Assembly (NCBI GenBank): GCA_965228855.1
Contig: CBDDIJ010000004.1
Span: 32,001 to 96,000, forward strand
DNA length: 64,000 nt
Direction: 5' to 3'
DNA from: Candidatus Obscuribacterales bacterium
GTDB lineage: Bacteria; Cyanobacteriota; Vampirovibrionia; Obscuribacterales; Obscuribacteraceae
The notes below the pieces were generated by a model, which ran no database searches, had not been told where the DNA came from, and saw only the letters and a list, made by a program, of their open reading frames with translations. The position numbers were made by a program, and so were the translations under genes. Shown here in pieces: positions 2,167-37,667 of the stretch. How positions within the stretch are numbered: position 1 is the stretch's first letter; every line of letters starts with the position of its first letter.

Positions 2167-2529
2167 TTTTACAAAATTATTTAAATTTCTACAAAATGGG
2201 CAAGTGACTGCGAAAAGTAACAGTTACCTCAAAATAATTTAAGACTTTGTACTGTTTGTTCCATTTGATTTAGGTGTAAATTTTAAACATCTTGCTTAAA
2301 TCTTTATATCCTTCTTTTATTTAAATTTGATAGGCATCATCATCTTGAAATACTTTGTTTTATCAAACTTAAATGAAAGGACTGTTAAAAGATTTATGTA
2401 AGATGTTTGAAAATTTGCACCTCAATTAAATGGAACAAACAGAACAAAGTCTCAAATTAATCTGAGGCGACTGTTACTTTTCGCAGTCACGTGAGCCTAT
2501 TTTGTAGAAATTTAAATAATTTTGCAAAA
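2167..2529. repeat. Fold-back, MITE-like element with ~140-bp imperfect terminal inverted repeats and a ~80-bp spacer
   Basis: 2167-2306 (..acaaaattatttaaatttctacaaaat..gtgactgcgaaaagtaacagt..tgtttgttccattt..) is the reverse complement of ~2386-2529, with scattered substitutions. Confidence 0.85.
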
Positions 2530-6121: not shown

Positions 6122-6300
6122 AACATGCCCAAAAATTTTGACTTTTCAATTTACACCAGTTACGCACATGGTGTATTTGGAAATCCGATTACACTATTTA
6201 GATTTCACCTGTTAAAAATTGACTTCGAGTAATTGGATTTCCAAATACACCATGTGCGTAACTGGTGTAAATTGAAAAGTCAAATTTTTAGGGCCATGTA
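6122..6300. repeat. Short fold-back, MITE-like element with ~70-bp inverted repeats and a ~36-bp spacer
   Basis: ttgacttttcaatttacaccagttacgcacatggtgtatttggaaatcc (~6138-6186) recurs as its reverse complement at ~6235-6283. Confidence 0.9.
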
Positions 6301-7012
6301 TAATCTTATGTAAAACTTCCTGCTTTGATTTTAATTCCTTACTTTTTATTGGTAAGGAAAATGAGCTTTGGAGTCGAAAGAAGAGATTTTGGTTTTCTTT
6401 ACGAAGAAGCAAAATTATTATATAAATCTTTCCTTTTCACATACTTGAAATAATAATCTGATTATTTAACTACAATGCTTTTCTTTTCGCCAAGAGAGAA
6501 AAATTACTAGGCTAAAATCAAAATGTATTGTTTGATATTATAAACTTATTTTCAGAATTTTTGAGAATACGGTTTTATTAGAAGACATTGAATTTAAATT
6601 CTTAGATAATCTGAATATATAGCTTAACAAATTTTTTATTTCAAAATAAAAAAATTAGCTAAGATAAAATAATATTAAGATTTTTGATTTTGATTTAAAA
6701 TATATTACAAAAATAGTTATTAAAATTTAAATAGAAGTATAATTACTTTTTCTCATAATTTCTAAAAATACAGTATTATTATAAATTAATAATTTGCGTC
6801 TAAATTCATCTCTTTTTTAATGAAATGATAACGAATTATAATAGTTGAGAATTTAAATTGCATATTATTTAAATTTAAATATGTACGCACATTTAATTTT
6901 CAAATGTTAAGAGTGGTTTCTGTTATTCAATATTCTTAATTTGATGTGTTTTGTTGCTTCCTCCAGTAAATACCAATTTATATATCTATAGTATTAAAAA
7001 CTCAATACCAAA

Positions 7013-9497
7013 ATGAACAAGAACAGCAAATATTTCAAATCTTTTGAGATTCCGAGAAAGAATTCAAAAAATAAAATCGGCAAGTTTTATTTCATAATTT
7101 TACTAAATCTTGTAAAATTTAGATCCCCAAGTTCTAATGAAATTGCTTGAGTTTGATTGACCAAAGTATTTTGACTTCACTCAGCTAGGACAAAAGGAGG
7201 CAAGTTGTCAGTTCGCAAAAAGCAATGTCGTTTATCATTAAATTAGAGTTTTACTTTTTTCCAAAAATACTGAGATTATTTATAATGTAGCAAAACTAAC
7301 TTTTATTTTGCATTTTTGATTTTCTATTTAATATCAGCTTTGCAGTAAAAATTATTAATAAAATAATAAAGACTTTATCATAGCCAGCTGTGAGTAGCAA
7401 GGAAATCAAAATTGATGAGATTAATGATGAATTTAACACTGAGAACAAACATCCTAATTGTCAGCAGCAAAACAAGACGAAGTACTTCAGTCAAAAGAAT
7501 AACAGCAATCTTCAAAACTATTATAAAAAGTATATTTCTGCTATCCATAAATTATTAATTTTTAATATAGAATATAAACTTTGTAATCTCTGAAAATCTT
7601 GGAAAGAAAGAGCCTCTCAATGTTAAAAAATCCGCAAGAGGAGTAGATAAGCTTCAAGTTGATAGCAGCTTTGAGTGAATGCAACACAAGTTCCATTTAA
7701 AATCGATATCCAATCAGTCACCGACTGATTACAATCTATCAAAGAGAAATCAAAATAGTTCCAAATAACTATTCAACTTCGCGCTCTAAAGTTTGTCAAT
7801 CAGTATACAAAAAGTACATTGACGTTTCAAAGAAATCTAGTCCTTTGACTAATTTAAAAGAAATGAGTCGGCACAATGAATCATTAGGCACAAACTCATT
7901 TTTGGTAGGGAAAAGTAAAAGAATCTGCAAAAATCAATCGAACCTCAAAAACTGTTCTTCATTTATTTGCTGAAGTAAATCTCCATTAAGAAGTATCAAG
8001 GATTCTTGCAAATCCAACAACTGAATTAAGTCTAAGAAAAGCCTCAAAGAGCTCAGCTGAAATCAAGAGGATAGTAAGAGAAAAATGAGGCAGAAAATCA
8101 AAAGAACCACTTCGAAAAACAGCGCTAGAAGCACCAGCAAAATCTGCTCTATATCAAAGACTAGCAAACAACAGGAGCCAAGACTGAACGAAATATCATC
8201 GGTATTAAAGTAAGAGTGATTCAAACTTAAGACATTACTAAAAATATGCAGCTGATTATTAGATTGCATCAATATCATAAAATTAAGGTTAAATAGACTT
8301 TTGTTATAGAGTGAACACTTTCGATTCAATTGACTCAGTTGCTATTAAAAATAATAATGCGCATCAACCTTCTGATAAGTCAAGTAAGTTGAAACTCTTG
8401 TGATTCGTTCAAAATCTATGCCAGTTAAAAATAGTAGTTTAACTTAAAAGGAAATTAAATTCAAATATTTTGGTTTTGGGATGAGTAGAATTTGGGATAA
8501 AAATCGCAAAGCAAATCAAAAAATAGTATTTTGTAAAGCAGCAAATAGAAATACAGGTTTTCAAACTATTGAGAGATATCTTAGCTGGTAGCTAATGATT
8601 TAGATCGAATTAGTACTGGGTGAATTAAAATATTGGTTATCGAATAAAATTTGATTTCAGTACTTTACAAGTTAATACCCTTTTATAATTAGCCGAAATA
8701 GTGAAGAAAAGAGCAAAGATTATTAAGAGCTGACGGATTAGTCCAAGAAATATTAAGTCATCTGGTAGAGCGCCTAAATAAGTCCCAACGGAAGTGAAAT
8801 ATGGACAACAAAAATCATGATTTTGAGAATAGATCTCTATGCCAAAACTCGATGCAAAGCTGCAGCATTGCTATAAGTAGTAATATTAGTAAAATACCGA
8901 GTAGTCAGCAGACAAGGAATCAAGCGAATATTGGGAATGTAAAGAGTAATATCTCTTCAATTATGGAAACTTACTCTCATTTGATGGCGAAGAAGAAGTC
9001 GCTACAGAAGAGAAGTCACAATAAAGAAAGCAATAGATCCTTCTGATCTAAACATAAAAAGCCAGTGAAGAGCAAGCAAACCTAATAAATACAATCCTAT
9101 TAAATCTATTTTAAAACATATGGATGCTGCTGAAAAGGTATTTCATAAGCAAAAGGAATGTGCGAGTAAACCCAAAAATAATCCAGCTAGTCTGTTTGAG
9201 ATTAAGCAAAATGTTGAAAAAGAGTTGACCAATAATAAATATCAAAATAGAAATTTAAACTTCTTAAGTTTGTGCAGTAGTAGTCAAAGAGCGATGCTAA
9301 ACGAACTTAAAATGCAATCAGATCAGCTAAAGATTCAATTAAATTTATTTATGCAAGCTCAGAATACTATTGATTCTGTTCCAAAAAGAGTAGATGGAAG
9401 CGATCTTACTTTTAGAAATTTTGGATCAGATTTAACATCAACAGATAGTACTCAAAGAATAGTAGAAGATGATAACAATATACAAACTTCAAGATAA
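7013..9497 (+). CDS. Multi-exon, multiply frameshifted K/S/N-rich protein with an N-terminal EFDCPKYFDF motif (TPX2-like)
   Basis: Introns 7080-7122 (GC-AG), 7200-7383 (GC-AG), 7530-7570, 8210-8309 and 8384-8692 are all phase-compatible. Shifts occur at ATA-TAA 7572 (+2), AAA-TAA 7763 (+1), AAA-TAA 8776 (+1) and ACC-TAA 9080 (+1), with eight in-frame TGA. The model links ORFs 7390, 8801 and 9120. Confidence 0.65.
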
Positions 9498-12022: not shown

Positions 12023-12377
12023 TTAATTTTCTTGTTTTGTATTCAAAACAGCTACCTTCTTCTTTGTAAGTGTAGTCTTCTCTTTCTTCGTGACATGGAG
12101 TAAGGTCTGTGATGACTCGACAATTTTATTAAAAGCTCCTTCGGATTCAGCAATCGCTTTATCGTATTCTTCTAAAGCAGAGTATTTTTTGGATAGAGAA
12201 TCCATAGTACTGCGTAATTCGTTGCTGAGGGCTTCGATGTTCTTCTCAACTTCGCTATTTCTCAGTCTCTTCCTTTACAACTTGGTTATGGATCTCTTCT
12301 CTGCTCTTTTCGAGGCTTTCGATGATCTTTACAAGCTCGGTAATGTACTTTTGGACTGAAGCTCCGTGGGATGCCAT
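12023..12377 (-). CDS. SSNA1: SSNA1/DIP13/NA14 centriolar microtubule coiled-coil protein (117 aa, made via a +1 frameshift)
   Basis: MASHGASVQKYITELVKIIESLEKSREEIHNQVVKEETEK (AAA-TAG at 12260-12255) continues in the +1 frame as SEVEKNIE...YDKAIAESEGAFNKIVESSQTLLHV. Both halves match the SSNA1 pattern GAALQNYNNELVKCIEEL...[23 protein letters not shown]. Confidence 0.92.
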
Positions 12378-18930: not shown

Positions 18931-20245
18931 ATGAAAAATAGCAAAAGGGACTCAGAGAGCGCTGAAATTAGAAAGTAAGTAGGCAATCCGCTGATATCAG
19001 CTTATCTATTCTGTTAATTTACAAAATAAACTCGACTCGCTATAAAATTCACAAATTTCTGAATTGTACAAAGAGCAAACTGAGTTCTGCTCAATAAATA
19101 CTAAATCTTATTGTTGATTCATGAAGTTTTGTTGCACTTAATAAAAATGAATATTTTAATTAATCAAAACACTTCTAATATTCAAATTGAATTAGTCGTG
19201 TCGATCAGGATGTGATATTTTAGTTTGGCTATGCATATTTATTAAAGTTAAAATCATGATTTTTACTATAAATCATTTAGAAATCAGTATGGAAGAGGCA
19301 GGAATAGCAAGAGAATAGGACTGTAAGAATACTTCTATTGCAAATACTCCACTTTAAAAATAGATACAAATCAATGTTATATAAAATCATGAATCACTTA
19401 ATTCATATAATAGATCCCAATATGACTTTAAGACTATTCCAGATCAACTAACCGGAAATAAAACAAAGAATTATGAATGCAGGAGCTTAGGAAATATGTC
19501 AACGTCAAACTCAAGAAGTAAAAGGATGTCTAATCAGCAAGAAGGAGTGCTCTGCACCACGTTCAGTAATAAAAATTGCATGAATTTTAATGAGACAGAG
19601 ATAACCAACAATACAGCTCCTGCCAATTTTTGGAATAAAGTACTTCAGTATGTTCAAGGGAGAAATAAAGATAGCAACTTATTTGAAAAATATGTGGAGA
19701 TGAAGAAGGCAAAGAGAGAAATTGAAGTGAAATTTAGCTCAGATCTTAAAGCCTGCGAAACTGTGCTAAACTCAAGAGAACTATTTTCCAAGTACATATT
19801 TGATTCATATTTATTGCCTGAAATCAAATCCAAAGGCGCGATGTTTAAAGAGGATGATAAATACAAAATGTATATGAACTTTATCAATGATGAGCAGTTT
19901 TATATTAAAATCAAAAACAATTACTTACTTAAAGAGGTGAGGAGGGATTCATAATCTTTAGATTGAAAAATTTAAGCATAAAAAGTTAAAGTATGCACAA
20001 AATACAAACATAAAGAGAGGTAAAGATGGACTTCTTAATTAGTTTAGCTAATTCAAAAGTATCTAATAAATAAGCGATTCATCGAGTTCTGCAAGATGGC
20101 TCTTATGAACAAAGGAGTTGTACTGCAAAATATTAAAGACTTTAAGTACATTCCAAGGAGACTTATGAAACCAAATGTAAATAGCTTATCTGGTGAGTTT
20201 TTGGAAGCATGAAGTTGACTTCTCGTTTATCAAATTAAGATTTAA
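18931..20245 (+). CDS. Hypothetical multi-exon protein with an AAA-TAA +1 frameshift
   Basis: Exons 18931-18974, 19281-19322, 19414-19936, 19962-20019 and 20048 onward, with phase-matched GT-AG introns (two of 25 and 28 nt). AAA-TAA at 20068-20073 is followed by an open +1 frame. The 3' end is uncertain. Confidence 0.55.
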
Positions 20246-20452
20246 ATAAAATTACCAAATAGTCATTATATCTTCTTTATATGGGCTTGAAATATATCCT
20301 CATTTAAAAAAGTATGATTACTAAAAATTTACTATGAAATATAAACATCAATAGAACAGGACTCATCAAAATATTTATTGTTAATCAATTAAATTAAAAT
20401 GAACCAAAATCAATTTTATCTTATTGATAAGAAGGAGTGTTAATAACTGATT

Positions 20453-20927
20453 AAATAAATAAAAATATTCGATAATTTATGATCTGTTAATTATTAACGA
20501 GGTCGTGTTTGCAAAGGTGGTGCTTTCTTTTCAAAACTGTCAACATTTGCCGGAATGTGGGTAACAGAACAGATTATTAATGATCTTCAGCCAGTCTGGA
20601 CCGAGCCAGTTTGAGTTGTCGAAGAAGTCAAAGAGAGCAAAATTAAAATCATTGTTTTGCTATTTTGAAACTATAATTTATAATTTTCATTGAAAATCCA
20701 AAGCTAAGCTTCAAAATAGCAAAACAATGATTTTAATTTTGCTCTCTTTGACTTCTTCGACAACTCAAACTGGCTCGGTCCAGACTGGCTGAAGATCATT
20801 AATAATCTGTTCTGTTACCCACATTCCGGCAAATGTTGACAGTTTTGAAAAGAAAGCACCACCTTTGCAAACACGACCTCGTTAATAATTAACGGATCAT
20901 AAATTAAAAGAATATTTTTATTTATTT
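20453..20927. repeat. Near-perfect palindrome with ~217-bp arms and a ~40-bp spacer
   Basis: 20453-20669 is the reverse complement of 20710-20927, with very few differences. Confidence 0.95.
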
Positions 20928-20960
20928 CAATTTTTTCATATCCTCGTGGGGTTTTGGGTT
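20926..20960. other. Telomere-addition site: TTCAA (E-Cbs core), 17 bp, then GGGGTTTTGGGTT
   Basis: TTCAA at 20926-20930, exactly 17 nt, then a G4T4-like run from 20948. The minus strand reads aaTTGAAata, fitting the Euplotes crassus E-Cbs consensus HATTGAAaHH. Confidence 0.85.
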
Positions 20961-21374
20961 TAATAACTGATTAAATAATAAAAATTTGGCGATAATTTTT
21001 ATTTTTTACTATTTCAATAAATGCTTTTTTAGAATTAATCAGCTAGTTTTTAAAATAACAAATTATGAATATATTTGAATAAGAAATCCAGAATAACTAA
21101 AATATTTTAATTTTTGCTTTAATAACATCTAGTTTTATTTCGAACAAGAAATAACATATTAAAAAATTTAACATTTTTACTATGGCTTTATTTAAAGACT
21201 AGCTTATGCTAGTAATTTTTGAAAAACAAATAATCTTATTTAAGATTTTAATCAAATGGCTTTAAATTTGCAAATTTGAGCCTTTCATTAATTTTACAAC
21301 TATAAATAAGATTTAATGTTTGACATTTTAAAAGTAGAAATAATATTTAATTAAAATTTTAACAATTTTTTTAG

Positions 21375-22925
21375 AATGCGGAAGTCCTTTAATTAGCAAA
21401 AGAGCAATATTTACTCCAACCAGAGATCTCAAACAGAGTTTTGAATGTGATATAAGCAACAATAGATTCATCGAAGATTGTGAAAACCCTCAAAACAACA
21501 GTAAAAAATATTTATTTAAATAAAAGTGATGAACTTTACCTATTCAAACAACATTTCTAAGGAAATTGTTTAGATCTAATAAAAGAAGTTTACAAGAAGT
21601 GGACAAATTATGGAGACTTCCAGCCAATGACTCCAGAAATTGGAGAAAGTAAAACTCCATTAATCAGTCGAAGCAAAGTCACAAACATCAACTATCAATT
21701 TGTATGATAGATATAAAGCTTTTTACATTACTTTCAATATTTTCCTCACAACATTAAATTTTAATTTATTTAGTTGTTCATGTAAAAATGCATCAAGTTA
21801 GTAAATACAATTCTAACTTCATCCTTCCACATTTTCTATCTAATATAAAATAGTCATAAAGCTAATAACAGCGGTTTTAGTAATACAAATATATAGAATT
21901 CAGAGAAAGTTCAATCATCTGGAGGAAGCAAGTACGAGAATATATGAATGTCGAACCACAATCACATGAGGACGCCAAATATCGACTCGTAAGTAAAACA
22001 ATTAACCAATCTGGCTAAGCATTTTCATCCCAAGGGTTGCAACATATAAAGTTTGTATCAACCGTAACTTCTCTACTTTTCTTTAAGTTTCGATCTGTGT
22101 TGTCATATTCATAGAAGAATACTCTTAAAATAAAATGCATTTTTACTTAAGAAACCAAATCAATTCCAAATAAATTTGACAATTGGCTGATTCAAAACTT
22201 CCTCTGGATTACATCAGCAACAATTATGAGCGCACTTACAACTTATCATTATGGAATAATATTTCTTGATTTTAAATTGCATTTTTAGAAACAACGAAAT
22301 ATCTGAGAAAGACTCGAATTCCGAATCTGAAAGTACTGATAAATCAACCGAAAATAAAGCAAAAAAGCTCACCTCTACTTTCCAAAGGAACAAAATTGTA
22401 TGCTTTTTGCTTAGAAAATTTTTTTTCAACTGACTTTTATAGGGAAACAATAGACATTTTAAGAGTGGGTCGAATAAATTTAAAATTCATCACATTTCAA
22501 AACCAGACCGACAATCTACAATTAGAAAACTGATAAAGCAAGGGACGTTGAGGATCATTCCTGAACGAATAAAGGATATTTTCACGAATTCTGCGTGAAA
22601 GAATGGTGTTATTAGTCCAACAAAGACGAAAAATAAGTACGTGATATAACTTCTCAAGTTTGTTCAGCATTACTAACAATGCATTTTTACTTGAACAGTT
22701 TAACCATGAAAATAGATGAATGAGTTCTGACATAATTGTAAAAGATATCAAATAGCTTATGTAAGTATTCCATTACTCGCTAATTGTAGTTTTTCTTTCA
22801 TTCAATACAATGCCATGATTTCTTTAGCAAAATATCGAACAAATAATATAAAATCACCTTCGTTTAAAAAGAGAAGACAATGAGTTCAAAATTCATGGAT
22901 TGATGAGAAAAAACAAATAGAATAA
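21375..22925 (+). CDS. Hypothetical multi-exon ciliate protein (start not resolved)
   Basis: Coding-like exons bounded by AG/GT (e.g. 21375-21500, 21574-21701, 22443-22636), in-frame TGA codons, and AAA-TAG at 22750-22755 whose +1 frame matches the phase of the next exon. Confidence 0.45.
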
Positions 22926-23001
22926 GATTTATAAAAAATCAGATAAATTTAAAGCTATTTTGATACAAAAAAGTGCACAACAATATATAAAATTAATTAC
23001 T

Positions 23002-23028
23002 TTCAACTTGTTTTATATCATAAGGGGG
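23002..23028. other. Ciliate-bacterial junction at a telomere-addition position (TTCAA, 17 bp, GGGGG)
   Basis: TTCAA at 23002-23006, 17 nt, then GGGGG at 23024-23028, followed at once by GC-rich trbJ sequence. Confidence 0.8.
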
Positions 23029-23768
23029 TAGCCGGCGCCGGGCTCAAGAAACCGGCGTCGCTGTTCGCGGCCCTGTTCGGCAGCGGCCGCCTGCTCGGCG
23101 GCGGAGAGGGCGTCGGCACGGCCATTGGCGGCGAGCAAGGCGGTGAGGTCGGCGAGTTGCTGCGCCTGAAGGGCGAGAATCTGATTGCCTGCCTGGGTCG
23201 CCTGCAGCGCACCGGTCGCGCCCTGGCTCTCTCCAACCAGAGCCGAGAGTTCGGCGCGCTGCGTCTCGATGTTGCCGACGACGCCGGCCTGGACGCGCAT
23301 CGCATCCTGGAGCGCGCCGACAGTGTTGCCCCAGCGCTCCCGAGCCAGGTCGATGAGGTCCTGGTCGGAAGCGGAGAGGTCCATGTCGGCGTATTGCTGG
23401 GAAAAGATCTGATCGATCTGCTGGACGTCGAAGGCGATGCGCTGGGCCTCGCCCAGCAACTGCTGGGTGCGCTGGACGGACTGCAGAATCTGCTGGAGCG
23501 ATGAATAGGGCAGGCTCGCCAGATTGCGCGCCTGGTTGATCAGCATCTGGGCTTCGTTCTGCAGGCTCTGGATCTGATTGTTGATCTGTTCGAGGGCGCG
23601 GGCCGCTTGCAGCACGTTCTCGGCGTAGTTGGAGGGGTCGAAGACGATGTCGCCGAAGCCGAAGAGCGCGTGGGCAGGCGTGACGGCGAGAGGCGACAAC
23701 GCAACCGGCAGCGTCAGCATGGTGGAGACGAACAGGATGTGGCGGATGCGCGAGCGTGGACGAGTCAT
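23028..23768 (-). CDS. trbJ: Conjugal transfer protein TrbJ, cut near its C-terminus by the junction
   Basis: Signal peptide, then IVFDPSNYAENVLQAARALEQINNQIQSLQNEAQML...SQGATGALQATQAGNQ; ATG at 23768. The terminal PLMI* comes from ciliate DNA. Confidence 0.92.
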
Positions 23769-26239
23769 GGAAGAATCTCCTCTGTGGGTTGATCGAGCGC
23801 CGCGGCCGGAGCGGCGAGATTGCTGAGGTTGGGGATGATGTCGGCGGCCCAATCGAGGTCGCGAGCGCGCAGCCAGGCGTCGAGAAAGCCCTCGCGCCCA
23901 TGCTCGGCCAGCACCTCTTCGATGCGGGCGTGATCCGACTTTGCCGACGCCGCGCACAGCGCCAGGGCGACGTCGCCGAGGCCGAGTTCGAAGAGCCGGT
24001 TGCCGCGGCGGGACTGCGCGTAGTAGTCGCGCTTGGGCAGGGCCCGGGCGATGATCTCGATCTGCCGGTCGTTTAGACCGAAGCGCCGATAGATTGCGGT
24101 GAGTTGGGGCTCGATCGCGCGATCGTTGGGCAACAGGATGCGCGAGTGGCAGGAGTCGATGATCTCGGCCGCGATCGTGCTCTTTTCGAGCTGGGCCAGC
24201 GACTGGGTCGCGAAGATCACGCTGGCGTTCTTCTTGCGAAGCGTGACCAGCCACTGGGCAAGTTGGCTGGCAAAGCCGGGATCGCTCAGCGCCAGCCAGC
24301 CCTCGTCGACGATGACGAGCGTCGGTCTGCCATCGAGCCGCCCGGCGATGCGGTGGAAGAGATAGGCGAGCGTGGCCGGCGCGGCGCCGGTGCCCAGCAG
24401 TCCCTCGGTCTCGAAAGCCAGGACGGACGCCGATCCGAGGGTTTCCGTTTCGGCGTCGAGCAGCCGTCCATAGGGCCCGCCGACACAATAGGGCTCGAGG
24501 GCGCGCTTCAGGTCATTGGACTGGAGCAGCACCGTGAGCCCGGTGACGGTCCGTTCCGCGACGGGGGCCGAGGCAAGTGAGGTGAGCGCCGTCCAGATGT
24601 GCTCCTTGACGTCCGGCATGATGAGCACGCCCTCGCGCGCGAGCATGGCGACGAGCCAGTCGGCGGCCCAGGCGCGTTCGGGCGTGTGTTCGATGCCGGC
24701 AAAGGGCTGGAGCGATACCGAGGTATCGGCGCCTTCGGTCAGTTCGCCACCGAGGTCGTGCCAGTCGCCGCCCATGGCCAGCACGGCGGTGCGGATCGAC
24801 CCGCCGAAATCGAAGGCGAAGACCTGCGAATTCTCGTAACGGCGGAACTGCAGGGCCATCAGCGCCAGCAGCACCGACTTGCCGGCCCCGGTCGGCCCGA
24901 CCACTAGGGTGTGGCCGACGTCACCAACATGAAGGGATAACCGGAACGGGGTCGAGCCTTCCGTCCTGCCAAAGAGCAGTGGGGGTGCACGGAAATGCTC
25001 GTCCCGTTCCGGCCCCGCCCACACCGCCGAGAGCGGGATCATGTGGGCGAGATTCAGTGTGCTGATGGGAGGCTGGCGCACATTGGCGTAGAGGTGCCCG
25101 GGCAGCGTGCCGAGCCAAGCATCGACAGCGTTGATGGTCTCCACCATGCCGGTGAAGTCGCGGCCCTGGATGACCTTCTCGATCAGCCGGAGCCTTTCGT
25201 CGGCAACACCGGGGTCGGCGTCCCAGACCGTCACCGTCGCCGTGACATAGGCCTCGCCGGCATAGTCGGCGCCCAGTTCCTGGAGCGCGAGATCCGCATC
25301 GGCCGCCTTGTTCGCCGCGTCCGTGTCGACCAGTGCGGAAGCTTCGTTGGTCAGCACTTCCTTGACGATCGCGGCGATTGACTTGCGTTTAGCGAACCAT
25401 TGGCGGCGGATGCGTGTCACCAGCCGCGTGGCATCGGTCTTGTCGAGCAGGATGGCGCGGGTCGCCCACCTGTAGGGGAAGGCGAGGCGGTTGAGCTCGT
25501 CGAGAATTCCCGGGGTGGTCGTGCCCGGAAAGCCGACAATGGTCAGGACCCGCAGATGTGTATCGCCCAGGCGCGGCTCGAGCCCGCCGGCGAGCGGCTG
25601 ATCGGCGAGCAGTGCGTCGAGATACATCGGCGTCTCGGGGACGCCGACGCGATGACGCTTGGTCGAGACCGTCGAGTGCAGGTAGGTGAGCGTCTCGGCG
25701 TCATCGAGCCAGCGGCATTCGGGCATGAAGCCGTCGAGGAGCGCCAGTACGCGATCGGTGCGATCGACGAAGCCCTCGAGGATTTCCCAAGGATTGACCC
25801 CCGTCTGCTCGCGGCCCTCGTAGAGCCAGGTTTCGGCGCGGGCGGAATCCTCCGCCGGCGGCAGATAGACGATGGTGAGCAAGTAGCTCGACTCGAAGTG
25901 CGTTCCAGCTTCCTCGAAATCGGCCTTGCGCTCGGTATCGACCAGGGCCGAGGCGGCATCGGGGAATGTGCTTCGCGGATAGGTCGCGGCTTCGTGCCGC
26001 TGCGCCTCGACGAAGATGCTCCAGCCCGAGCCGAGGCGTCGGAAGGCATTGTTGAGGCGGCCGGCGACGCCGACCAGTTCGGCCGGCACCGAACTGTCGA
26101 GATCGGGGCCGCGAAACTTGGCCGAGCGCTGGAGACTGCCGTCCTTGTTGAGGACGACGCCCTGGCCGACCAGGGCGGCCCATGGCAGGTAATCCGCGAG
26201 GCGGGCGCCGGTGCGCCGGTATTCAGCGAGGTTCATCAT
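23765..26239 (-). CDS. trbE: Conjugal transfer ATPase TrbE (VirB4 family)
   Basis: LADYLPWAALV..GVVLNKDGS, Walker A GPTGAGKS, Walker B IVDEGW and LRKKNASVIFATQS. Confidence 0.97.
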   Translation of the reverse strand: MMNLAEYRRTGARLADYLPWAALVGQGVVLNKDGSLQRSAKFRGPDLDSSVPAELVGVAGRLNNAFRRLGSGWSIFVEAQRHEAATYPRSTFPDAASALVDTERKADFEEAGTHFESSYLLTIVYLPPAEDSARAETWLYEGREQTGVNPWEILEGFVDRTDRVLALLDGFMPECRWLDDAETLTYLHSTVSTKRHRVGVPETPMYLDALLADQPLAGGLEPRLGDTHLRVLTIVGFPGTTTPGILDELNRLAFPYRWATRAILLDKTDATRLVTRIRRQWFAKRKSIAAIVKEVLTNEASALVDTDAANKAADADLALQELGADYAGEAYVTATVTVWDADPGVADERLRLIEKVIQGRDFTGMVETINAVDAWLGTLPGHLYANVRQPPISTLNLAHMIPLSAVWAGPERDEHFRAPPLLFGRTEGSTPFRLSLHVGDVGHTLVVGPTGAGKSVLLALMALQFRRYENSQVFAFDFGGSIRTAVLAMGGDWHDLGGELTEGADTSVSLQPFAGIEHTPERAWAADWLVAMLAREGVLIMPDVKEHIWTALTSLASAPVAERTVTGLTVLLQSNDLKRALEPYCVGGPYGRLLDAETETLGSASVLAFETEGLLGTGAAPATLAYLFHRIAGRLDGRPTLVIVDEGWLALSDPGFASQLAQWLVTLRKKNASVIFATQSLAQLEKSTIAAEIIDSCHSRILLPNDRAIEPQLTAIYRRFGLNDRQIEIIARALPKRDYYAQSRRGNRLFELGLGDVALALCAASAKSDHARIEEVLAEHGREGFLDAWLRARDLDWAADIIPNLSNLAAPAAALDQPTEEILP

Positions 26240-26248
26240 CGCGGCACC

Positions 26249-26509
26249 TCACAATCCGAGATGCGCGGGGATGCGCAGATGCCGGCGTACGACCTCGACG
26301 AAGAGCGGATCGCGCCGGGCCGCCCAGACGGCCGCCAGATGTCCGATCGCCCAGAGCACGATGCCGACGATCCAGAGCCGAAGGCCGAGACCGAGCGCGG
26401 CGGCCAGCGTGCCGTTGAGGATCGCGACCGAGCGTGGGGCGCCGCCGAGCAGGATCGGCTCGGTCAGAGCCCGACGGACGGGTGCGGAAAAGCCCGGAAC
26501 CTCTTCCAT
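26249..26509 (-). CDS. trbD: TrbD (VirB3 family)
   Basis: MEEVPGFSAPVRRALTEPILLGGAPRSVAILNGT...AARRDPLF, located between trbC and trbE. Confidence 0.9.
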   Translation of the reverse strand: MEEVPGFSAPVRRALTEPILLGGAPRSVAILNGTLAAALGLGLRLWIVGIVLWAIGHLAAVWAARRDPLFVEVVRRHLRIPAHLGL

Positions 26510-26838
26510 CAGATCACGGCCCCGCCGCCGAAGCTGAAGAAGGAAAGGAAGAAGGAACTGGCCGCGAAGGCGATCGAGAGACCGAAGACGATCTGGACCA
26601 GCCGCCTGAACCCGCCCGAGGTGTCGCCGAAGGCGAGCGTCAGGCCGGTGACGATGATGATGATCACCGCGATGATCTTGGCGACCGGCCCTTCGATGGA
26701 TTCGAGGATCTGCTGCAGCGGCTCTTCCCAGGGCATGGACGATCCGGCCGCGTAGGCGGCGTTCGTCATGACAAGGGTGAGAGAGGTGGCGAGCGCGGTC
26801 GCCGCGAGGCGCACACGGGCACGTAGCGTCATTTTCAT
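26509..26838 (-). CDS. trbC: TrbC pilin (VirB2 family)
   Basis: AYAAGSSMPWEEPLQQILESIEGPVAKIIAVIIIIVTGLTLAFGD. Confidence 0.93.
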   Translation of the reverse strand: MKMTLRARVRLAATALATSLTLVMTNAAYAAGSSMPWEEPLQQILESIEGPVAKIIAVIIIIVTGLTLAFGDTSGGFRRLVQIVFGLSIAFAASSFFLSFFSFGGGAVI

Positions 26839-27824
26839 TGCGGGGCTCCATTGGGTTCGGGGGACGTGATCGTGGGGGCAAGGTCGTAGTCGCTGGTCGC
26901 TCCGAGCCCGGTGACGTCGACGAGTTCGGCGAGCCGCCGTGCTGACCCGCGACCCGAGAGCACGGCGATGACGTCGATCGTCTCGGCGATGAGCGCGCGC
27001 GGCACGGTGACGACGGCTTCCTGGATGAGTTGCTCGAGGCGCCGCAGGGCGCCGATGGCCGTACCGGCATGGATGGTGCCGATGCCGCCCGGATGACCGG
27101 TCGACCACGCCTTCAACAGGTCGAGCGCCTCGGCGCCGCGCACCTCGCCGATCGGGATCCGATCGGGCCGCAGCCGAAGGGAGGAGCGGACGAGTTCGGA
27201 CAGGGAGACGACGCCATCCCGGGTGCGTAACGCCACGAGGTTGGGCGCGGCGCATTGCAGTTCACGGGTGTCTTCGATGAGAACGACACGATCGCCAGTG
27301 CGGGCGACCTCGGCGAGAAGGGCGTTCGTCAGCGTCGTCTTGCCGGTCGACGTGCCGCCGGCAACGAGGATGTTCTTCCGTTCGGCGACGGCCCGGCGCA
27401 GTGCGTCGGCCTGCGCATCGGACATGATGCCAGCCGCCACATAGTCCGCGAGCGAGAACACCGCGACAGCGGGCTTGCGGATCGCGAAGGCAGGTGCCGC
27501 AACCACCGGCGGCAGCAGACCCTCGAAACGCTCCCCCGTTCCGGGCAACTCAGCCGAGACGCGCGGGGCACCGGAATGGACTTCGGCGCCGACATGGTGC
27601 GCGACAAGGCGGATGATGCGTTCGCCGTCCGTGGCCGACAGTTTCTCGCCGGTATCGGCAAGGCCACTCGCCAAGCGGTCGATCCAGAGCCGCCCATCGG
27701 GGTTGAGCATCACCTCGACGATCGCAGGATCGTCCAGAAACCTGGCGACGGCCGGGCCGAGGGCGGTGCGCAGCATGCGCGTGCCGCGTTCGACCGCCAC
27801 CGACTCTCTGGAAGAAACAACCAC
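26835..27824 (-). CDS. trbB: P-type conjugative ATPase TrbB (VirB11 family)
   Basis: [27 protein letters not shown] and [15 protein letters not shown]. Confidence 0.96.
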
Positions 27825-28440: not shown

Positions 28441-30426
28441 TCACAGCATGCCGTCGCCAGGATCGAGATCGGCCTGCCGTGCGATCCTCTGCATCGAGCG
28501 ATTGAGGTTCTGAGCGAGGACAGCCGCCTCGTCATCGGCGTCACGATCGACATCGAATTCGTCGTCAGGGGTTGGCGTCGACTCGGGCACGATCTTGCTG
28601 CTGAGTTCGGGCTGCCGGCGTTTCTCGGATTCGGTCGGATCCTCGTCATCGACCGGCGTCACGGAGGGGAGATGGCGGGCCGCGAGGTCCGGGTGCTGGG
28701 GCATTCGAAGTCCGCTCCAGTCGTCCTCGGTCGCGGCATGTCGATGCTGGATCGCAGGTGGTGGCAGGATGCGTTCCTTGAAGCGGCCGTCTTCGTAGTA
28801 GCGTGCTTTGCGTGCGCGGATGGGGTGGATTCCGGCGACCATGACGATCTCGTCGCTTGGCGGAAGCTGCATGACCTCACCGGGGGTCAGCAGCGGACGC
28901 GCCGTCTCTTGGCGGGACACCATCAGGTGGCCGAGCCAGGGCGAGAGGCGATGGCCGGCATAGTTTTTCATCGCCCGCATTTCGGTCGCGGTGCCGAGTG
29001 CGTCCGATACGCGCTTGGCTGTCCGCTCGTCGTTGGTCGCGAAGGAGACGCGGACGTGGCAGTTGTCGAGGATGGAATTGTTCGGCCCGTAGGCCCGCTC
29101 GATCTGGTTGAGCGACTGGGCAATGAGGAACGACTTGAGGCCGTAACCGGCCATGAAGGCCAGCGCCGACTCGAAGAAGTCGAGGCGGCCAAGCGCGGGA
29201 AACTCATCGAGCATCAGCAACAGGCGGTGACGGCTCGACCTGGCATTGAGGTCTTCGGTGAGGCGCCGGCCGATCTGATTGAGCAGGAGACGCACCAGCG
29301 GCTTGGTCCGGTTGATGTCCGATGGCGGCACGACGAGGTAGAGCGTCGTAGGGCGATCGGCCGCAACGATTTCGGCGATGCGCCAGTCACAGCGCGACGT
29401 CACCGCCGCCACGACCGGATCACGGTAGAGTCCGAGGAAGCTCATCGCCGTGCTCAGCACGCCTGAGCGTTCGTTGTCGGACTTGTTGAGCAGTTCGCGC
29501 GCGGCCGACGCCACCACGGGGTGTGGACCCGCATCACCCAGGTGGCGGGTTTTCATCATCGCGGCGAGCGTGGCCTCGATCGAGCGGGCCGGATCGGACA
29601 GGAAGTTGGCAACGCCCGCTAGCGTCTTGTCCTTCTCGGCATAGAGCACGTGGAGGATGGCACCGACCAGGAGGGCATGCGAGGTCTTCTCCCAATGATT
29701 GCGGCGCTCGAGCGAGCCCTCGGGGTCGACCAGGATGTCGGCGATGTTCTGGACATCGCGAACTTCCCACTCTCCACGTCGCACCTCGAGCAGCGGATTG
29801 TACGCGGAGGACGCTGCGTTCGTCGGATCGAACAGCAGCACGCGGCCGTGTCTTGCTCGAAAGCCGGCCGTGAGGCTCCAGTTCTCGCCCTTGATGTCAT
29901 GGACGATGGCCGAGCCCGGCCAGGTTAGCAGCGAGGGAATGACGAGGCCCACGCCCTTGCCCGATCGCGTCGGTGCAAAGCACAGCACGTGCTCAGGGCC
30001 ATCGTGGCGCAGGTAGTCGTGTTCGTAGCGGCCGAGCACGACGCCGTCAGTCCCAAGAAGGCCCGCCTCCTTGATCTCAGGGGGTGTGGCCCAGCGTGCC
30101 GAGCCGTAGGTTTCGATATTGTCCGCCTCGCGTGCGCGCAGAACCGACATGAAGATCGCTGCCGCAATGGACGCGAAGCCACCGGAGGCAGCGATGATGC
30201 CACCCTCTTGGAAGATCGACCGCGCGTAAGCGTCGTAGGAGAACCACCACCAGAAGAAGGCGGGTGGGTAGTAGACCGGCCAACCCGCGAGATGAAACCA
30301 AGGTGCGCCTAGTTGTGGCTGAAAGCCGAGGCGCCAAGCCGTCCATTGAGTGGCGCACCAGACCGCCGTTAGCACAATCAGCCCGACAACAACGATCTGA
30401 CCCCAGAGGATTTTCGTTCCCGACAC
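28441..30426 (-). CDS. traG: Type IV coupling protein TraG/VirD4
   Basis: YGSARWA, HVLCFAPTRSGKGVGLVIP, HDIKGENW and LLMLDEFPALG. Confidence 0.97.
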   Translation of the reverse strand: MSGTKILWGQIVVVGLIVLTAVWCATQWTAWRLGFQPQLGAPWFHLAGWPVYYPPAFFWWWFSYDAYARSIFQEGGIIAASGGFASIAAAIFMSVLRAREADNIETYGSARWATPPEIKEAGLLGTDGVVLGRYEHDYLRHDGPEHVLCFAPTRSGKGVGLVIPSLLTWPGSAIVHDIKGENWSLTAGFRARHGRVLLFDPTNAASSAYNPLLEVRRGEWEVRDVQNIADILVDPEGSLERRNHWEKTSHALLVGAILHVLYAEKDKTLAGVANFLSDPARSIEATLAAMMKTRHLGDAGPHPVVASAARELLNKSDNERSGVLSTAMSFLGLYRDPVVAAVTSRCDWRIAEIVAADRPTTLYLVVPPSDINRTKPLVRLLLNQIGRRLTEDLNARSSRHRLLLMLDEFPALGRLDFFESALAFMAGYGLKSFLIAQSLNQIERAYGPNNSILDNCHVRVSFATNDERTAKRVSDALGTATEMRAMKNYAGHRLSPWLGHLMVSRQETARPLLTPGEVMQLPPSDEIVMVAGIHPIRARKARYYEDGRFKERILPPPAIQHRHAATEDDWSGLRMPQHPDLAARHLPSVTPVDDEDPTESEKRRQPELSSKIVPESTPTPDDEFDVDRDADDEAAVLAQNLNRSMQRIARQADLDPGDGML

Positions 30427-31515: not shown

Positions 31516-33255
31516 TCATAGACCCAGTCCCCGCTTCCGGCTGAAACTCCAATCGACACCGCCGTCGCCGCGGGCGACGCCTGAGATATGCTGGCCCAGC
31601 CTCTTGTCGAGCGAAGGCGTCCACGGGACGAGCTGGAAGCCGAGCCCATCGTCGATCATGGCGAAGCGGCCCGATGCCAGCGTGAAGCGCTGACGGTACG
31701 TGCCGGCGACATAGCCGCCTGTGGGTGCCTTGTTGAAAGGCCGGCCAAGTTCAGTGGCGAGTTTGTCGCCGAGGGCCTCCACCTCACGTTGACGCAGCGT
31801 ATCAAGGAGACGGCGCGTGAAGACCACGCGGCTGCCGTGGCGCTGGGCGAGACCCTCCTCGACCAGATGCTCGGCGCGGCGGTCGAGCGCTTCCCGCACC
31901 TCCCGGCCGAAGCCGCCTTCACCGAGCGCGATCGGATCGTGGCTCACGGCCTGCCGGTCGAGCCAGGTGGCGCCGGCCGCCGAAACCTGGCCGTCAATCG
32001 GCGGGTCGGACCGCACGGCAATCGCTACTCTCTGGCGCCCCTGGATGTCCTCGAACTTGCGCAACTCGACGATCGAGCCCGGCGCGCTGTCACCCGCGGC
32101 GTCAAGGTCGGGCAGCCTGATGTGGTGGGTGCGGCCGTCGACGGCGTCGATCACGACATAGGCGGTTCCGCTTAACTCGTCATCGAGTCCGCGATCGACA
32201 AGTCGGCCGATGACGGGATCGTCGAGCTTCTCGCCGGCCAGGACGAAGCTCGACGCACCGCGGTCGATGCCGCGATCCGTGAGGGCGCGGTTCAGGCGCT
32301 TGATGATGTCGCCTCGCTCGCCGACTTCGCGCATGGTCGCTTCCGCGTTGTCGGATAGAAACCACTGGCTGTGTCCGACCTGATGGGCGACGCCGAAGAC
32401 CTCAAGCGTACGCAGGCGCCCGACCTTGAGCGCATGATACGCATCGGGCTGTTCGCCGGCGCGCGGGGCGAGATCGACGATGCCGCTCTTCATCCCGTCG
32501 CGCTTGAGCTGCTGGTCGAGACTGGTCCAGCGCTCGGCCTCGACCTGGCTTTCGAGCTGGCGCCGGATATCCTGGTCGGTGCGCGGGCCAAGCTCCTGGG
32601 TGATGAGATCGCGCGCGCGATCACGCATGCCCTCCTTGATGTAGTCGCGGGAGATGACGAGGTTCTCGCCGTCCTCGCGCACGCCGCGGACGATCAGATG
32701 GACGTGCGGATGCTCGGTGTTCCAGTGGTCGACGGCCACCCAGTCGAGCCTGGTATCAAGGTCCCGCTCCATTTGATCGACGAGATCGCGGGTGAACGAT
32801 TTGAGGGCGGCGATCTCAAGTGCATCGTCCGGTGAGACGATGAAGCGGAAATGATGTCGGTCGTCCTTGCAGCGCTCGGCGAAATCCTCCGCATCGACAT
32901 CCTCCACGCCGGGACCGAAGAGCCGCGCCTTCTCCCCGTCCCGGGTGACGCCGTCGCGGCGGAGATACGACAGGTGGTTCGGCAGATTGCCCCCGCGCAG
33001 ATTCATGCGCACGACGCGGGCCTTGATCACCGCGCCGCGCGAACGTGCCGTGAGAAGACGATTGGCCTGCACCGATGCGCGTCGTCCGCGCCCGAAGCGC
33101 GAGCGATTGCCGGGGCCGATCCTGCCCTGGCGGGAGACTGAGCCGCCTGCTTTCTGCGCGGCGGCGAGCGCCTGGGCGACGAAGGGCCGCGCGCGCTGTG
33201 TCTTGCTCGAGCGGATACGGCCAGGGCGGACGCGGAACTCGCGCTCGTCGCTCAT
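31516..33255 (-). CDS. MOBP (VirD2/RlxS-like, DUF3363) relaxase
   Basis: HLSYLRRDG (catalytic Tyr), HHFRFIVSP and AVDHWNTEHPHVHLIV (3H motif). Likely start is MSDEREF at 33255. Confidence 0.93.
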   Translation of the reverse strand: MSDEREFRVRPGRIRSSKTQRARPFVAQALAAAQKAGGSVSRQGRIGPGNRSRFGRGRRASVQANRLLTARSRGAVIKARVVRMNLRGGNLPNHLSYLRRDGVTRDGEKARLFGPGVEDVDAEDFAERCKDDRHHFRFIVSPDDALEIAALKSFTRDLVDQMERDLDTRLDWVAVDHWNTEHPHVHLIVRGVREDGENLVISRDYIKEGMRDRARDLITQELGPRTDQDIRRQLESQVEAERWTSLDQQLKRDGMKSGIVDLAPRAGEQPDAYHALKVGRLRTLEVFGVAHQVGHSQWFLSDNAEATMREVGERGDIIKRLNRALTDRGIDRGASSFVLAGEKLDDPVIGRLVDRGLDDELSGTAYVVIDAVDGRTHHIRLPDLDAAGDSAPGSIVELRKFEDIQGRQRVAIAVRSDPPIDGQVSAAGATWLDRQAVSHDPIALGEGGFGREVREALDRRAEHLVEEGLAQRHGSRVVFTRRLLDTLRQREVEALGDKLATELGRPFNKAPTGGYVAGTYRQRFTLASGRFAMIDDGLGFQLVPWTPSLDKRLGQHISGVARGDGGVDWSFSRKRGLGL

Positions 33256-33399
33256 CGTGCAGATCCTGCACATCGCGCCAAGGCGCGAAGAATTATGGAA
33301 AATTGCCCATAGCGCGATGTAGCCGCTGCAAGCGCACATCGCGCAAAAGTCCTGCAAGTCGTTGAAACATAACCCCCCGACCGCAGCGCACCTCGCGCC

Positions 33400-35956: not shown

Positions 35957-36606
35957 GACGTCACCGTCCCGATGCGGAGCCGCTCGATCTCGGAAGCGAG
36001 CGCGCCGATCTCACGCGCGGCGAGCCCCCCGACATCAAATTCGCAAGCGAGTTGCCCGGATTGCGCCGCCGCGGCGAACAGCACGCGCTGGCCAATCGTT
36101 GCGGCGAGAACGGGCGGATCGTGATCGGCGAGCGTCTCGGCGGTGTCGCGCGCGATGATGGTGCGCGCGCCGCACCGGTTGAGCACGAAGCGGGCGGCGA
36201 GTTGCGGCCGGTAGATGCGCGCCTCGGCGAGCAGCGCCAGCATCTCGGCCGAAGCCCAGCCGTCGAGCGGCGACGGCTGCACCGGGATCAGCACGAGGTC
36301 GGCGGCGAGCAGCGACGAGCGCATCAGGCCGGCGACGCGAGGCGGTCCGTCGATGACGACGTGGTCGGCGTCGCGGGCGAGTTCCGGCGCTTCGCGGTGC
36401 AGCGTGTCGCGCGCCAGCCCAACAACGCCGAACAGGCGCGGCGCCCCACTGCGGCTGCGCTGCTGCGACCAGTCAAGCGCCGAGCCCTGCGGGTCGGCAT
36501 CGACCAGGGTGACGCGCTTGCCGCGCCGTGCCCATTCACCGGCGAGATGCAGGGCGAGCGTGGTCTTGCCGACGCCGCCCTTCTGGTTGAGGAGCGCGAT
36601 GATCAT
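35953..36606 (-). CDS. parA: ParA family partition ATPase
   Basis: [17 protein letters not shown] and IDGPP. Confidence 0.95.
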
Positions 36607-37667
36607 CGGTCGCTCCTCCGGCGAATGGTGCCAGAAGGAGGGGAGTTATCCCCGGAACGCGTTCCCAAATAATTAGATTTAGACTCTTCTTTAGAGTCTT
36701 TACGGGCGTGATTCTGCTCGCTTGGCCAAAGGCTTAACTGAGGTTCGTGCGCCTGATGTACGGATAGGTTTGCGCCCGATGTACGGATACCGGACGCGCC
36801 CGATGTACGGATATCTGGCGAAGTTACGCACAGCTTTTCCACAGGGCGGATGTGGACAAGTTCTTCTCTGTCCGGTGCGCGTTCGATGGCGAGCGCATAG
36901 CCAGGCAGCGGCTGGCGGCGCGCAATGGCGCGAATGTCGATGGCGAAGTCGGAATAGCGCGCGAGCGAGCCGCTCTTGGTATGGAGATGCCGAAGCTCGA
37001 AGCGCCAGCCACCGGTCTGGCGGCCGGCGTGCTTGCGCGCCACGCGATAAAGCCAGCGCTCGATGCCACCAGTGAGGTCGAAGTAGTCAGGGTCGATGGC
37101 GAGGACCAGGCGGCGATCGACGATGCCTTGGTAGAGCCATTCGGGCAGGACGAACTCCATGCCCTCGACATGGCCGCTGTGCGTCGCCAGTTCTTCCCAC
37201 TCGTTGATCCAGGAGAATTGCTGGCGCCGCCAGTGCTCGCCCTGGCGGATGGTGGTGCGGATGACTGTCGATTGCAGGCGGGTCAGCGCACTCTTGATCA
37301 GGAAGTAGCTGCGCGCGCCCGTGGTGCGGCCGATGCCGTTGAGCAGTTGATAGGGCGTGAAGCGGAAGAAGCGCGAGGTCGGCAGGCCTCGATCCTGGGC
37401 GGCCAGGATCTGGCTTGCGGCCCAGATCAGCACGTCGGCATCCCAGATCGTCGCCATGCCGTGTTCGGCGACGGCATAGACTTGGAGTTCGACGTCGCCG
37501 GCCTTGTAATGGATCGGCGCGACGCGGCGCGACTTCGACAGCGAGAAGAAGGGATGCGCCATCAGATCGCGCTGATCGCGCGGCGGCACGTCGCCGCTCA
37601 GCGCCTCGAAGGGATCGAGTTGCGCACGTTCGCTGCGCTGGCGCGGTGATGCCGTCATTGGGATCAC
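36603..37667 (-). CDS. repA: Replication initiator protein A (RPA family)
   Basis: [34 protein letters not shown] and [19 protein letters not shown]. Confidence 0.9.
36749..36859 (+). repeat. Three 18-bp iteron-like repeats plus DnaA-box-like sites inside repA (candidate oriV)
   Basis: GCGCCYGATGTACGGATA at 36749, 36772 and 36796; TTTTCCACA at 36835-36843; TGTGGACAA at 36851-36859; AT-rich patch at ~36667-36702. Confidence 0.75.

Follow-up and report, generated by a model that had tools for sequence, protein, structure and literature searches.

In Euplotes, the distance from the TTGAA core of the chromosome breakage sequence E-Cbs to the telomere is said to be exactly 17 bp, as Klobutcher et al. 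reportedly found in 1998. In more recent accounts, E-Cbs is described as setting the chromosome break at a precise distance, with E. crassus adding G4T4 at one fixed base, and the consensus of the element is given as HATTGAAaHH (PMC7599177). The TTGAA core stays in the somatic chromosome beside the precisely placed G4T4 telomere (PMC7599177, PMC12513430), and the figure of 17-20 bp that is found in these accounts refers to transcript ends at the motif (PMC7599177 / PMC12513430). Cysteine as the meaning of UGA, together with +1 frameshifts, has also been described as a trait of Euplotes (PMC12513430, PMC8455672). A quite different kind of system is relevant as well, namely the multi-domain chimeras described for long-read metagenome assemblers (10.1101/2025.04.22.649783). 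The locus presented below resembles the chimeric contigs of that description in a one-base shift of GC content, coverage and gene taxonomy and in the occurrence of several joins per assembly, and differs from them in that two of its assembly's joins coincide with programmed chromosome ends of a ciliate and are recognizable by sequence for that reason.

The stretch of DNA that was analysed (the window, 64,000 nt) corresponds to C4:32001-96000 of assembly G000, which comprises 8.2 Mb in 6 contigs, a contiguity that points to long reads as its source. Three large contigs of G000 have a GC content of about 0.51, and the bin is scored at 95.3% completeness and 5.8% contamination. Contig C4 (182 kb, mean GC 0.54) is composed of 55 kb at 0.29 GC followed by 127 kb at 0.65 GC, and the two parts meet in the window, where TTCAA (23002-23006), 17 nt (23007-23023) and GGGGG (23024-23028) are followed directly by TAGCCGG. 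GC content rises from 0.17 to 0.75 between the 100 bp on each side of this junction, or from 0.27 to 0.67 between the 2 kb on each side, and is 0.57-0.71 from there up to the window end. The original prediction had read this geometry and the abrupt GC rise correctly from the letters. Only four of the G's are telomeric (23024-23027), 23028 being native trbJ, and 23027 is the one base common to the telomeric G4 and native trbJ. When compared by eye with the 10-bp consensus HATTGAAaHH, the core matches at 8/10 positions at 23002, at 10/10 at 20926, where the same motif recurs, and at 9/10 on a second contig, C3. The locus is thus like a Euplotes chromosome end in its TTGAA core and precisely placed G4T4 telomere within 23002-23027 (the telomere being seen in sequencing run X17), and unlike one in that the contig's telomere is shortened to G4 with bacterial DNA next to it. 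The features are collected in Table 1.

Table 1. Features of the window and of the far end of contig C4 (window coordinates unless prefixed by C4)
Feature	Position	Strand	Remarks
Euplotid ciliate DNA	1-23023		Last 23 kb of the 55-kb block C4:1-55023, GC 0.29
Eukaryote-type glutaminyl-tRNA synthetase, 758 aa	3594-5870	-	Pfam PF00749, PF04558
Small gene, AAA-TAG then +1 frame; possibly SSNA1-like	12024-12377	-	Weak SSNA1 match of the +1 half, E 0.06
Alpha-mannosidase, 1034 aa	12462-15566	-	PF01074, PF09261
520-bp foldback insert	20440-20959		200-nt arms, 99% complementary; flanked by 19-bp exact direct repeat
TTCAA-N17-GGGGTTTTGGG, apparent internal telomere tract	20926-20958	+	Right tip of foldback insert
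E-Cbs core TTGAA (TTCAA on +)	23002-23006	-	8/10 to HATTGAAaHH, by eye
17-nt spacer, core to telomere-addition site	23007-23023	+	2064-bp X18, X19 contigs end at 23023
First G4 of macronuclear telomere	23024-23027	+	X17 contig with loose telomeric end at 23027
GC-rich (0.65) bacterial DNA, integrative conjugative element	23027-64000		127 kb in all, continues past window
trbJ, cut after codon 247	23027-23768	-	NCBIfam NF010448, TIGR02780 over cut-off
trbE	23765-26239	-	NF010447 over cut-off
TrbB-type secretion ATPase (name suggested by position)	26835-27824	-	PF00437
TraG/VirD4 coupling protein	28441-30426	-	PF02534
Relaxase (VirD2-like, DUF3363)	31516-33357	-	PF03432, PF11843
RepA replication initiator	36603-37667	-	PF10134
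Probable tyrosine recombinase beside tRNA-Leu	C4:116718-118586		Far end of element, then further bacterial DNA

For the read side, window positions 20719-27018 were compared with the Logan contigs of 4 of 24 runs, of which X16-X18 belong to one study, possibly the one that the window comes from, and X19 to another; these contigs omit rare variants, and joints and loose ends are known among those listed. The record sets of X18 and X19 are very alike and may represent the same strain. In X17, a contig of depth 2408 tracks the window over 22520-23027 and then continues as TTTTGGGG, and in both X18 and X19 a contig of 2064 bp ends exactly at 23023. Position 23024 is the true telomere-addition position of a Euplotes-type macronuclear chromosome, because of this telomeric loose end behind 23027: the TTGAA core lies 17 nt inside the telomere and G4T4 is added at that very base. 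The programmed chromosome end that had been proposed at 23024 is therefore borne out, and the search for a telomere at the junction base, which had been suggested along with it, is answered by G4T4G4 at 23027. We also observed that in X17 the depth of the last 508 bp of this chromosome (22520-23027) is three times that of the remainder (2408 vs 759) and that a loose end lies before 22520 in X16, X18 and X19; this segment is likely shared with another chromosome.

The DNA beyond the junction carries an integrative conjugative element that we take to be Tn4371-like. It has in common with that family P-type trb genes in the order trbB-C-D-E-J, the coupling protein TraG, a VirD2-like relaxase, RepA and a ParA-like gene, along with a probable far-end tyrosine recombinase (C4:116718-118166 reaches E 2e-11 against integrase models without passing their cut-offs), and it differs in being cut inside trbJ, with trbK/L/F/G and that end of the element absent from the assembly. 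TrbK/L/F/G gave no tblastn match anywhere in G000, Pfam TrbL likewise gave none, and neither a complete trb operon nor, judged by the tRNA-Leu core, an att site at the trb end was found in G000, while TrbL comes next in all 144 loci with room among the 160 TrbJ relatives compared. As had been predicted, trbJ is cut near its end: all 160 relatives align up to residue 247 (tblastn), beyond which 158 of them continue for 9-13 residues, one continues for 4 and one runs without a stop within 50 codons. The tail of 139 relatives starts QPG, mostly as QPGNAQMF..., and the frame in the window ends on 4 residues derived from the junction (PLMI). Comparison with the closest relative (L095, 89.8% over 4742 bp), which reads TAC/CAGCCC where the window reads TAC/CCCCTT, indicates that native trbJ DNA extends as far as 23027, a single base into the telomeric G4. 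Judging from the TrbJ relatives, the element is probably alphaproteobacterial. Its first 20 kb matched none of 7 genomes of the same genus as G000 and gave just short scraps in 5 of 40 relatives, and BLAST of C4 against G000 returned no second copy of the element. The 17-nt 3' core of the tRNA-Leu has its only two occurrences at C4:118570 and 138280 and is absent at the junction, where the original prediction had noted no att site. The region C4:116718-138296 contains a pair of recombinase genes that are related (81% over 1.37 kb), one beside the tRNA-Leu and the other beside the 17-nt copy of its 3' end, so that it likely represents tandem islands; the second island contains, by eye, MerR-like and arsenic-related genes.

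The two sides of the junction part in the sequencing runs. A bacterial X17 contig of depth 9.04 begins at 23027 within the window and covers 23027-23409, and its 26 letters past 23027 are unlike the ciliate side. The count of molecules spanning 23024, for which the original prediction had called, is answered in part: these are short-read-type contigs only, no joint across 23024 is among those listed in the contigs of the 4 runs, where rare variants are dropped, and the X17 contigs of both sides end at 23027. The step in coverage, a comparison that the original prediction had proposed, is indeed seen (2408 vs 9.04) but is not decisive alone, because the depth of the element in X17 (about 2-11 where bins are covered) is close to the 14.6 of a low-copy ciliate variant, and the step by itself does not exclude a germline location of the element. 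Cover of the element is nil in X19 and amounts to traces in X18, where ciliate-side depth is 20-25; this fits an artefact, but is not counted as evidence. Two listed joints, 20934-21160 and 23109-26382, were set aside, as their sides of 21 bases are too short.

The junction in C4 is not the sole foreign join in G000, in which at least 4 of the 6 contigs have foreign heads, as seen from those of C4, C3, C2 and C1. The head of C3 is a second telomere-site chimera: C3:1-1875 (L002) is a stretch of ciliate DNA (1.87 kb) that starts CC, has an ATG located 5 nt inward of the TTGAA core, ends in TTCAA-N17-GGGG (1850-1875), and is joined to a 3.76-Mb contig of the host, a bacterium other than the one attached in C4. 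Its tetranucleotide correlation with the C4 ciliate block is 0.91. From C3:1876 onward, the genome G007 is 95% identical and has different sequence upstream, with one G shared, and BLAST of contig ends against G000 revealed no overlap closing the upstream side of C3. In C2, positions 1-61510 (L176:9510) are GC-rich, same-genus genomes match only after this stretch, and its tetranucleotide correlation with the bacterial part of C4 is 0.99; no telomere is present at its join to host DNA, which by eye cuts within a gene. The 9.7-kb contig C1 (L003) carries an AT-rich fragment of PorD (type IX secretion) at its head, followed by a body of 0.57-0.6 GC, and its end consists of an extended poly-A run followed by roughly 1 kb of DNA that is eukaryote-like and low in complexity. 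In the host part of C3, 21 tRNA genes were noticed on one strand within 3.5 kb (C3:724518-727973).

How the join arose can be judged from these observations. One thought is that the breakpoint of a random chimera lies 17 nt from a TTCAA by coincidence, the G's having come from GC-rich bacterial DNA. TTCAA is common (0.0038 per base, 211 in 55 kb), and shuffling the whole window gave 0.63 expected matches to TTCAA-N17-GGGG and reached the 2 observed in 15 of 100 shuffles, which is not significant; this shuffle, however, blends AT-rich and GC-rich DNA, and 2-kb block shuffles of the AT-rich part were used instead. These reached two matches in none of 200 for window 1-23027 (0.055 expected) and in 2 of 200 for the entire 55-kb ciliate block of C4 (0.105 expected). 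Native trbJ supplies just 2 of the 5 G's, the geometry repeats on C3, the chance of TTCAA at offset 17 of both joins is about 1.5e-5, and with AT-rich DNA upstream the motif occurs 3 times in the 8.2 Mb of G000, of which two are the ciliate-bacterium joins and the third is the tract at 20948. The telomere at this base in X17 refutes such a coincidence, which we regard as practically inconceivable. A genuine capture, in which conjugative DNA entered the developing macronucleus or the germline and, once telomerase had added the first G4, became attached by end joining at a programmed break, would account for the exact geometry and the single G4; the element does encode a type IV transfer system, and the tract at 20948 shows a telomere-tipped end joined to other DNA in this same ciliate. 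Nevertheless, the attached DNA is not an excised element but spans 127 kb, including a tRNA and additional bacterial sequence, the tRNA-Leu core occurs only at the two distant sites given above, the X17 contigs of both sides run into other letters behind 23027, and the same event on C3 would mean that a nanochromosome of 1.9 kb had acquired a bacterial contig of 3.76 Mb. The contrast in GC content across the junction is also undiminished, as the original prediction had noted in finding no amelioration, and E. focardii nanochromosomes were free of bacterial sequence (PMC8455672). A genuine insertion would be flanked by host DNA on either side or would terminate distally in a telomere; neither was found, as C4 remains at 0.60-0.68 GC to its end with no G4T4/C4A4 tract past C4 position 52948. 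We therefore consider capture very improbable.

That a real telomere-addition site at 23024 was joined to the bacterial element as a library or assembly chimera is, by comparison, almost certain. The join is an artefact and not a germline site because the contig ends diverge, the bacterial DNA amounts to 127 kb and the pattern recurs on C3; the artefact reading that had been favoured from the letters thus stands, with separate contigs of unlike depth and the cut trbJ also on its side. Within this reading, the join might have been made purely by computation without any chimeric molecule, the end of a telomere-trimmed ciliate contig having been attached to that of a bacterial contig by the assembler or a polisher. 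At each join precisely G4 plus a one-base overlap is retained, as a trimmed (TTTTGGGG)n would leave, C3 starts with CC, possibly a trimmed left telomere, and assemblers are described as able to output joins without read support (10.1101/2025.04.22.649783); but no overlap of more than one base that could drive such a misjoin exists, no N gap is present, and the internal tract at 20948 retained G4T4G3, so that we give this route a tentative, minor share of the artefact reading. A chimeric molecule is the more likely origin, and a probable course can be outlined from the features of the contigs. Abundant nanochromosomes would offer natural ends, one of which would be fused to a sheared bacterial fragment in a chimeric long read; the assembler would then overlap the ciliate half with germline-type reads and the other half with bacterial reads into one contig, the remaining telomere would be lost during consensus building or trimming so that G4 is left, and the contig, at a mean GC of 0.54, would fall into the bin of an unrelated host with a GC content near 0.51. 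Plain blunt ligation should retain the whole double-stranded telomere, yet both joins have G4 only, a point against this course; chimeras in G000 do not require a telomere, as the C2 join has none.

The join in C4 therefore marks a contaminated bin and not a gene capture, and is of modest use in quality control. A bin with the scores given above carries a 182-kb contig without evident host DNA and three more foreign-headed contigs, and TTCAA-N17-GGGG at a GC step may serve as an inexpensive signature of joins between ciliate and bacterial DNA, which would otherwise be mistaken for gene transfer across domains. If conjugative DNA had truly been captured at a programmed break, bacterial genes would have a route into ciliates, although the evidence is against it. 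In a literature search by title, with subscription papers outside its scope, no report of telomere-anchored chimeric reads or of such chimeras in bins was seen, nor did any title match on internal telomeres of Euplotes or on bacterial DNA in this genus.

Euplotid DNA makes up the AT-rich side, and its telomere, E-Cbs spacing and genetic code point to the genus Euplotes. The alpha-mannosidase ORF needs readthrough of 3 TGA codons, one of them within the PF01074 match, and the gene agrees with TGA as sense and TAA/TAG as stop, cysteine and tryptophan not being distinguished by it. One candidate AAA-TAR +1 frameshift site is located near 12258 in the SSNA1-like gene, whose +1 half has SSNA1 as its sole, weak PDB match and whose first half has no relevant PDB match; Pfam recognized no family in either half, nor in the ORF at 19385. 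The block also encodes an RRM protein and a band-7 protein. It is likely germline-type, because it contains many genes in series without telomeres between them. The idea that telomere-trimmed nanochromosomes in series make up the 55-kb block gained no support, as the gaps from TTCAA to TTGAA show no peak (2 at gap 34, largest count 3, 0.72 expected), albeit in a weak test.

The second TTCAA-N17 motif of the window, at 20926-20930 with GGGGTTTTGGG at 20948-20958, had been put forward as the same geometry, and this is borne out; the event, however, is not of the same kind. The tract has contigs across it in two runs and is therefore apparently genuine internal telomeric DNA, not another chimera: X18 and X19 each have one 87-bp contig across 20904-20989 with GGGGTTTTGGGG (one more G), at depths of 8.1 and 11.9 against 20-21 in the flank, with 31 letters right of the tract. 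The X17 contig of depth 759 skips 20440-20959, its loose end before 20960 being window 20410-20439, and parts of the 520-bp insert occur in multiple copies, with a depth of 193-2804 in the first bin. As a loose telomere lies behind 20958 in X17 and the DNA before 20925 there is unrelated, the same tip likely ends another chromosome. Perhaps the segment 20440-20959 is an insert with a telomeric tip, carried by germline DNA or by one allele. A bolder and rather doubtful proposal is that a telomere-healed somatic end (E-Cbs, 17 nt, G4T4G4 and a 200-nt foldback) was reinserted into germline-type DNA, duplicating 19 bp of the target, either as soma-to-germline capture or as an undescribed telomere-tipped mobile element, and is removed from the high-copy chromosome. 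If true, this insert would be real and new, unlike the artefactual join to the conjugative element; a search of the literature on telomere-tipped inserts, with subscription papers outside its scope, gave no matching title. Other imperfect foldback palindromes, with arms of 82-87% complementarity, are found in the ciliate block at window 2167-2529 and 6123-6299 and at C4:12508-13175 and 6996-8026, and these are possibly germline-limited elements.
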